This document shows positions 36,108 through 36,652 of a stretch of DNA of 64,000 nt, one piece after another. Location of the stretch: assembly GCA_053919585.1 (NCBI GenBank), contig CM132808.1; one strand, given 5' to 3'. Every line of letters begins with the position of its first letter. Within the stretch, counting starts at the first letter, position 1. The position numbers and the translations under genes are program-made. The stretch comes from Euprymna scolopes. Lineage: Eukaryota. The notes under the pieces were generated by a model. The model was not told the origin of the DNA. It searched no databases and worked only from the letters and a program-made list of their open reading frames with translations.

Positions 36108-36343
36108 AATAAATTCCACAGCCAAACAAGAGCCATGACAGTCAACGAACCAGAAGTCCAAGACTCGAGTTTCGCCCTCATTTGGACTCATCAGTTAGAC
36201 TCATCCGAACTCAGGATTCGAAACCCGAGCCTCCTGCATACGAGGCAAGCACTACCAACTGAGCAAACGCCCCGCACACAAGAATTTCTATTAACCAACA
36301 CAGATCAAGCAAACCGCGCCGAAATCCGACTGTGAAATGAACC
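36108..36343 (-). mobile_element. tRNA-derived SINE-like unit with intact hammerhead ribozyme (left arm)
   Basis: tRNA-like head 36273-36203 (ggggcgtttgctcagttggtag..ggtttcgaatcc), then the HHR at 36200-36156. Confidence 0.9.
36156..36200 (-). ncRNA. Complete type I hammerhead ribozyme (Sm-alpha-like)
   Basis: gtctaa-CTGATGA-gtcc aaatga gggc-GAAA-ctcgag-TC-ttggac. GUC cleavage triplet and palindromic helix III. Confidence 0.9.
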
Positions 36344-36400
36344 GACTTCGTCTTGACAAGGGACGCGGTCATCCAACCAGTTAATAACCCCAAGCCAGTA

Positions 36401-36652
36401 GGTTCATTTCGCAGTCGGATTTCGGCGCGGTTTGCTTGATCTGTGTTGGTTAATAGAAATTCTTGTGTGCGGGGCGTTTGCTCAGTTGGTAGAGTGCTTG
36501 CCTCAAATTCAAGAGGCTTGGGTTTCGAATCCTGAGTTCGGATGTGTCTAACTTATGAGCCCAAATGAGGACGAAACTCGAGTCTTGGACTTCCGGTTCT
36601 TTGACTGTAATGGCTCTTGTGGGCTGTGACATAGTTTGGCTGTGGAATTTAT
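36401..36652 (+). mobile_element. tRNA-derived SINE-like unit with core-mutated hammerhead (right arm)
   Basis: Head 36471-36540 with A box (tgctcagttggt) and B box (ggtttcgaatcc). HHR 36546-36590: gtctaa-CTTATGA-gccc aaatga ggac-GAAA-ctcgag-TC-ttggac. Confidence 0.9.

Follow-up and report, generated by a model that had tools for sequence, protein, structure and literature searches.

A tRNA-headed hammerhead repeat of Euprymna scolopes with a Penelope-type insertion footprint

Introduction

In Schistosoma mansoni, the Sm-alpha element consists of tandem units in which a Pol III promoter is followed by a hammerhead ribozyme, and the tandem arrangement is needed because cleavage leaves this promoter at the monomer's 3' end (PMC6765202, in its accessible sections); tRNA-Gln-derived SINEs of the same species have been linked to Sm-alpha (PMC2770079). 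Tandem repeats of type I hammerheads are also known as non-LTR retrozymes (PMC7229834), and a 2026 preprint argues that these derive from Penelope-like elements, or PLEs (bioRxiv 10.64898/2026.07.22.740005). PLEs, for their part, are described as occurring in partial tandems, accompanied by a 5'-truncated copy in inverted orientation, with a tail of 30-40 bp on one side and a bias towards microsatellites (PMC8557442), and in the available portion of the study of the Poseidon element PAc, the purified protein cuts and extends both DNA strands, is predicted to be a dimer, and initiates at two internal sites with the tail lying between them, the strands showing no difference in start site in vitro (PMC11167929). 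Further afield, tRNA promoters occur within non-autonomous LTR elements (PMC10886601), and hammerheads have merely been counted in a squid genome (PMC6962438). For animal retrozymes, both the mode of transcription and the enzyme that does the copying are settled only in part, and their mobilisation by PLEs has rested on co-occurrence and pLTR homology.

The repeat discussed here, from the genome of Euprymna scolopes, can be set beside each of these systems. Compared by architecture, it shares with Schistosoma Sm-alpha and Sj-alpha a tRNA-derived promoter region followed by a hammerhead and a presence in thousands of copies; however, the Sm-alpha-like elements of S. mansoni are tRNA-Gln-derived whereas the Euprymna head is tRNA-Ala-like, and the accessible descriptions of Sm-alpha and Sj-alpha (PMC6765202, PMC2770079) contain no PLE-type inverted or tailed insertion. 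With the metazoan non-LTR retrozymes it has in common a type I hammerhead in tandem monomers within 150-450 bp, a GC content below 50%, a self-paired predicted circle and a proposed mobilisation by PLEs, and by sequence criteria the family is a non-LTR retrozyme. The words 'Pol III' are absent from the accessible text of PMC7229834, where tRNA comes up, in the 12 of 18 places covered, in connection with tRNA ligase or processing, and 'tRNA' is likewise absent from the part of the preprint that was available; the preprint's evidence for PLEs, moreover, is co-occurrence and pLTR homology, whereas here there is an insertion footprint without detectable pLTR homology. EN+ PLEs such as PAc (PMC11167929, PMC8557442, both in part) resemble the repeat in their partial tandems, inverted 5'-truncated copy, one-sided tail and microsatellite targets, and in having two start sites downstream of a hammerhead, but the retrozyme has no RT/GIY-YIG coding region, carries a tRNA head, possesses a canonical rather than minimal hammerhead, and has a tail of 28 nt where 30-40 are described for PLEs. 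Finally, the TRIMp3 elements Cassandra, Helenus and Ajax (PMC10886601, in part) are also non-autonomous retroelements with a small-RNA-derived Pol III promoter (in the retrozyme a candidate promoter) inside the repeat, but are mobilised by LTR retrotransposons (with PBS, PPT and TSD), whereas the retrozyme has a PLE footprint and a ribozyme. In a literature search whose scope lay outside Repbase, supplements and most subscription papers, I found no published tRNA-headed hammerhead repeat with PLE-type inverted, tailed insertions; each part has been described separately, and the union of tRNA head, canonical ribozyme and PLE footprint is a new combination, not a new biological principle.

Anatomy of the palindrome

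The window analysed is a stretch of 64,000 nucleotides (G000:C26:53,878,001-53,942,000) of the Euprymna scolopes genome (5.9 Gb, 925 contigs). A preliminary description of it, made from the letters alone, had singled out a pair of tRNA-promoter and hammerhead units inverted around a 57-bp spacer, each with about 70 bp of shared leader. The inverted repeat is there, with 36126-36253 matching 36493-36620 at 91% and 36252-36347 matching 36397-36492 at 98%, and because the arms differ at 17 of 245 aligned sites and by two indels, the palindrome is not the assembly artefact that the same description had considered. The internal division into leader and spacer does not survive comparison with the family monomer, which is numbered from the hammerhead cut: the left, 'long-end' arm (36080-36396, minus strand) is 5'-truncated and comprises monomer 177-413 followed by 1-97, the right, 'short-end' arm (36397-36653, plus strand) is 5'-truncated as well and comprises 226-413 followed by 1-69, and they abut head to head at 36396/36397, where monomer 177 meets 226 with no inserted bases. 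The supposed spacer (36344-36396) is therefore monomer 177-229 of the left arm, and leader and spacer together (36274-36396, minus strand) are internal monomer sequence 177-299, that is, the ordinary interior of a monomer of about 413 bp. The left arm, first thought to end at 36108, extends 28 nt further to 36080, and this one-sided tail (36080-36107, minus strand; monomer 70-97), which has no counterpart in the right arm, lies between two fixed 3' ends. The target is a microsatellite, visible as (AT)n at 36050-36079 on the left flank and (TA)n at 36655-36670 on the right.

A type I hammerhead had been claimed for each arm, and comparison with Rfam RF00163 upholds this for one of them. On the minus strand, the left hammerhead (36200-36156) has an intact core, a helix III that closes an 8-nt palindrome and a score of 46.6 bits against a gathering score of 34, and its predicted cut at 36162/36161 agrees with the position given before. 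The right hammerhead (36546-36590, plus strand), whose core, CTTATGA, has U in place of G5 (36554) and whose helix II contains a C-A mismatch (36560/36571), scores 32.7 bits as a result, below the cut-off, and is predicted to be inactive; the helix II string originally quoted for the pair is not one sequence, being a composite of both arms. As for the tRNA-like heads with A and B boxes, the heads stand, weakly in this copy, while the B-box-like motif has an extra T and the 3' acceptor strand is gone, and since the acceptor stem is lost the head is not a working tRNA. The left head (36210-36273, minus strand) is tRNA-Ala-derived, with D, anticodon and T arms, an A-box and an imperfect B-box, and carries in this copy a 2-nt deletion in the D loop; the right head (36471-36536, plus strand) has a mutated anticodon arm and matches the Rfam tRNA model over 36480-36535 at 24.1 bits (E 0.052), below gathering. 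ARAGORN called no tRNA within the 64-kb window at its default setting, and at a relaxed threshold called tRNA-Ala in 54 of 75 family heads, the older-subfamily majority sequence being tRNA-Ala too.

The palindrome contains no whole monomer. As neither arm has two ribozymes, both arms are 5'-truncated and the right ribozyme is mutated, it is unable to release a monomer, and it is one ordinary decayed, truncated insertion, a dead-end product.

A family of 413-bp monomers

At a tandem locus the monomer recurs with periods of 413 and 413 bp, which confirms the earlier suggestion that it extends beyond the visible arm. When numbering starts at the predicted cut, its tRNA-derived head occupies 300-365, directly upstream of the hammerhead (375-413 and 1-6) and at the 3' end of the monomer, so that the Sm-alpha architecture proposed for the family also holds; 196 of its 413 bases are G or C, and it is non-coding. 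The exact 33-nt ribozyme core has 2,902 matches in the genome, a lower bound on the number of family copies, against 0 for the reversed control. A first genome search had given 5,665 first-look candidates, of which 40 were scored, and the locus counts given below refer to 78 non-redundant loci that remained after the removal of 12 duplicate fetches or duplicated loci. Two pairs of identical insertions 15-20 kb apart (L107/L108 at G000:C1:55.487 and 55.507 Mb, and L029/L030) suggest local segmental duplications, and one member of each pair was left out of the counts. A fragment of about 70 bp (monomer 1-69) has also been caught in a TG/TA-rich repeat and re-amplified at about 28 places (L121-L150). 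A classical tRNA SINE (SINE2) was considered as a class for the family and rejected: the head is internal, the 5' ends are scattered, and tandems and inversions are common.

The ribozyme core is intact in 108 of 125 copies, and core and all helices are intact together in 86 of the 125. When the older subfamily (25 loci) is compared with 9 young copies, none of the 39 hammerhead positions differs, as opposed to 66 of 258 (26%) elsewhere (Fisher P 4e-5), and the head differs at 7 of 68 positions against the same background (Fisher P 0.008), region 69-101 being omitted from that background since the alignment is distorted there by the TA ends. From these sequence comparisons, selection on source elements appears to have preserved both the hammerhead and the head. 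No compensatory changes occur in the hammerhead helices between the older and young subfamilies, the helices being invariant. The anticodon is AGC in the older subfamily (L187-L211) and CGC or TGC in the younger, all of them alanine anticodons in which the wobble base alone varies.

The head as a candidate promoter

Pol III terminates at T runs, and reading through into the next unit would need a sense strand free of T4. The sense strand of either subfamily has eight TTT runs and no T4; for the young monomer the missing T4 has a probability of about 0.01 by dinucleotide shuffling and 0.04 by a cruder estimate. The retrozyme family is likely transcribed by Pol III from the tRNA head, judging by its sequence, though the imperfect B-box weighs against this.

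An alternative, which I regard as unlikely, is that the repeat is indeed mobilised by a PLE but that its head is not a promoter, the RNA coming from Pol II read-through and the head being kept for its structure, for instance to block the ribozyme in a circle. The extra T in the B-box-like motif does give head positions 342-356 complementarity to the hammerhead's 3' strand, and for the young subfamily pairing of this ribozyme strand with the T-arm's 5' strand is possible in a predicted minimum fold that hides the ribozyme and lies 9 kcal/mol below the active one (-47.5 versus -38.3 kcal/mol). For the older subfamily, however, prediction gives another minimum, for which reason the T-arm block is a lead only; what is conserved between subfamilies is the whole head and not just 342-356, and the absence of a sense-strand T4 in both also speaks against a structural role alone. 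Folded as a circle, the monomer is predicted to be 72% paired (z -4.2 against 100 shuffles).

The RNA reads bear on the same choice. Three oligo-dT or polyA runs, covered to the extent of 4-12%, yielded 2,332, 133 and 609 reads that match the young monomer; run X1, which has transposase-type adapters and is probably DNA, was excluded. Because the reads come from both strands and many continue into unrelated sequence (85% of them in X24), they are largely host read-through, as a non-promoter head would have it, and reveal no autonomous transcript. Six X23 reads carry the template-switch adapter at the head's first base (L014:1691), as a promoter would suggest, but this is weak since there is a G run and similar counts occur elsewhere, including at an antisense site. 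Joints of period 413 are present in reads from X24, X22 and X23 and fit tandem DNA copies as well as circles.

Genomic 5' ends at the hammerhead cut were considered as proof of cleavage in vivo (46 matches versus 3 at the first control) and rejected as such. Among 30 such 5' ends inspected, 18 belonged to one copy re-amplified in another repeat and one was a mutated intact ribozyme, and the independent 5' ends, estimated from flank letters, number about 18 versus 19 and 10 at TT-start controls. There being no excess of 5' ends at the cut, the template that was reverse-transcribed therefore spans it, as an uncut multimer or a religated circle would. Loose RNA ends at the cut site were also discarded as evidence, being most simply a genomic copy that starts there and is followed by an A run.

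The insertion footprint

Of the 78 loci, 37 are head-to-head and 0 tail-to-tail, and the supposedly special head-to-head tRNA-hammerhead cassette is thereby a routine layout of the family. The first search was biased to inverted copies, and the least biased sample consists of 32 consecutive loci on contig C1 taken from exact-core matches (leaving out a contig-start match, pairs already picked and one duplicate), where 15 of 32 are head-to-head; among the first 100 exact cores listed there are 7 head-to-head pairs, 5 tandem pairs and 0 tail-to-tail. Counts by layout thus returned tandem, inverted and non-inverted copies, the inverted ones making up about half, with copies sitting in (TA)n and partial tandems present. 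Outward, the copies stop at one of two fixed 3' ends, at monomer 69-74 or so (where the TA run makes the last bases ambiguous) or at 97, beyond which alignments reach 101 through chance matches; genome-wide, 1,037 exact junctions join position 97 to (AT)n. Among the 37 pairs, 25 combine a short and a long end, 2 are long+long, 2 short+short, and 8 have one end unclassed, an excess of short+long that, if ends combined independently, has P = 5e-5 among the 29 classed pairs; 9 of 11 pairs are short+long in the least biased sample (P = 0.03). The partial tandems with an inverted 5'-truncated copy, the one-sided tail and the microsatellite target are the marks of a non-autonomous Penelope-like element, and the head-to-head pairs with two fixed 3' ends support the Penelope-type inverted insertion that the preliminary description had offered as one option. 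The back-to-back shape is what insertion normally leaves in this family, likely through the enzyme of a Penelope-type retrotransposon.

How the two arms arise is best seen in their likeness and in their inner ends. Arms of the same insertion are more alike than other arms in 26 of 27 cases (4.9% versus 8.3%), and such shared variants could also come from fold-back (snap-back) second-strand synthesis on a single cDNA or from L1-style twin priming on one linear RNA. Both routes are very unlikely, however, because the distance on the monomer between the two 5' breakpoints of paired arms is not below that expected by chance (P 0.10, n=31; P 0.21, n=22), each arm can hold sequence missing from the other (the tail, and 177-225 in this locus), and twin priming on one linear RNA would require long-end arms to stop close to the preceding unit's short-end site, which they do not. 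Since the arms are alike and their 5' breakpoints unrelated, two separately primed copies of one RNA species fit better than fold-back. This short+long asymmetry is left unexplained by the available part of the PAc assay, as no strand difference in start site emerged there (PMC11167929).

A purpose-built divergent cassette of two promoters and two ribozymes around a spacer has still less to recommend it: head and hammerhead happen to survive in both arms here and several near-identical layouts exist in the genome, but the spacer is lacking, the right ribozyme core is mutated, and what largely refutes it is that 5' breakpoints are scattered over the whole monomer and many inverted arms lack head or ribozyme. 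Nor did any read at >=98% bridge the junction of the locus or fall on its adjoining unique flanks, a weak test made by partial sampling of three raw-read runs from other individuals, X22 being uninformative. The TA-bordered inverted ends might speak for a MITE, or for another DNA transposon that has long terminal inverted repeats and targets TA, but this reading is refuted by the roughly half of copies without an inverted arm, the 5'-truncated copies, the head-to-tail tandems and the unequal outer ends, and has next to no chance of being right.

A Penelope-like element in the same genome

A GIY-YIG search of the genome gave 15,396 candidates, 150 of which were scored, and revealed a young PLE family (L154-L173, e.g. 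G000:C12:14495500-14505499) with intact 806-aa open frames encoding RT with GIY-YIG at the C-terminus, and with a variant hammerhead-like motif of its own. Its insertions lie in (TA)n and have a 31-nt tail whose last bases, AATC, are also those of the retrozyme tail, and short and long ends are combined at 17 of the 18 loci with both outward ends visible, in a sample of 20 loci that were fetched as likely pairs or multi-copy loci. In this PLE a short motif recurs just after each of the two start sites, a candidate initiation signal that is not evident in the retrozyme. By BLAST, the monomer has no homology to PLE copies in 30 GIY-YIG loci or in 32 further loci (the main family contributing 20 stretches and another family 12 loci), a comparison that covers a small part of the genome's PLE diversity (150 of the 15,396 candidates scored), and this lack of homology weakens the case for the sampled PLE as a firm partner. 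One weak monomer match met in the partner search (L186) proved to be an old copy of the retrozyme itself.

Proposed mechanism

The reading I favour, and consider probable, is that of a non-coding tandem repeat of about 413 bp in which a tRNA-Ala-derived head is combined with a type I hammerhead, and which Pol III likely transcribes and a PLE protein likely copies in trans: its expression logic would be like that of Sm-alpha, and its insertion is like that of a non-autonomous PLE, as the footprint makes visible. Where source units lie in tandem, the head, placed 3'-most in the cut-to-cut monomer, would drive transcription into the next unit, since the sense strand is without a T4 stop, and two successive hammerheads would then release a 413-nt monomer open to circularisation by ligation. 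Both strands of a (TA)n target would be nicked by a PLE protein, which would prime reverse transcription from both 3' ends, with the two starts, one per fixed site, made on a multimer or a circle; two incomplete cDNAs joined 5' end to 5' end would yield a palindrome with a one-sided tail. Within 413 nt, the repeat unites a candidate promoter with a canonical ribozyme and with a PLE footprint exact to the base, alongside intact PLE open frames in the same genome; it is a good test system, since an in vitro assay that already exists can be applied directly to trans-mobilisation and both-strand priming.

I would also suggest, tentatively and with somewhat more doubt than belief, that the family represents a SINE-like class that parasitises Penelope enzymes rather than LINE enzymes, in which a Pol III tRNA promoter, a hammerhead and paired PLE start sites would be combined on one 413-nt RNA circle, a PLE dimer would copy this circle from both cut strands at once, and the T-arm would serve as an off-switch against re-cleavage; Sm-alpha might then be another member, and the signal recognised by the PLE would be structural and not a shared sequence.

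Other repeats in the window

A second, unrelated head-to-head inverted repeat lies close by at 34824-35242 (arms 34833-34953 and 35110-35230, 94%), with a hammerhead-like core (CTGATGA ... GAAA) in each arm, no Rfam score, and related copies elsewhere (L013, L178); this, too, is probably an insertion of the PLE or retrozyme type. Four divergent 5S rRNA-like matches of 41.9-55.4 bits (12364-12474, 43180-43295, 60774-60868 and 62787-62898) likely represent a 5S-derived SINE family, and a tandem repeat with a period of about 70 bp occupies 61394-61757.
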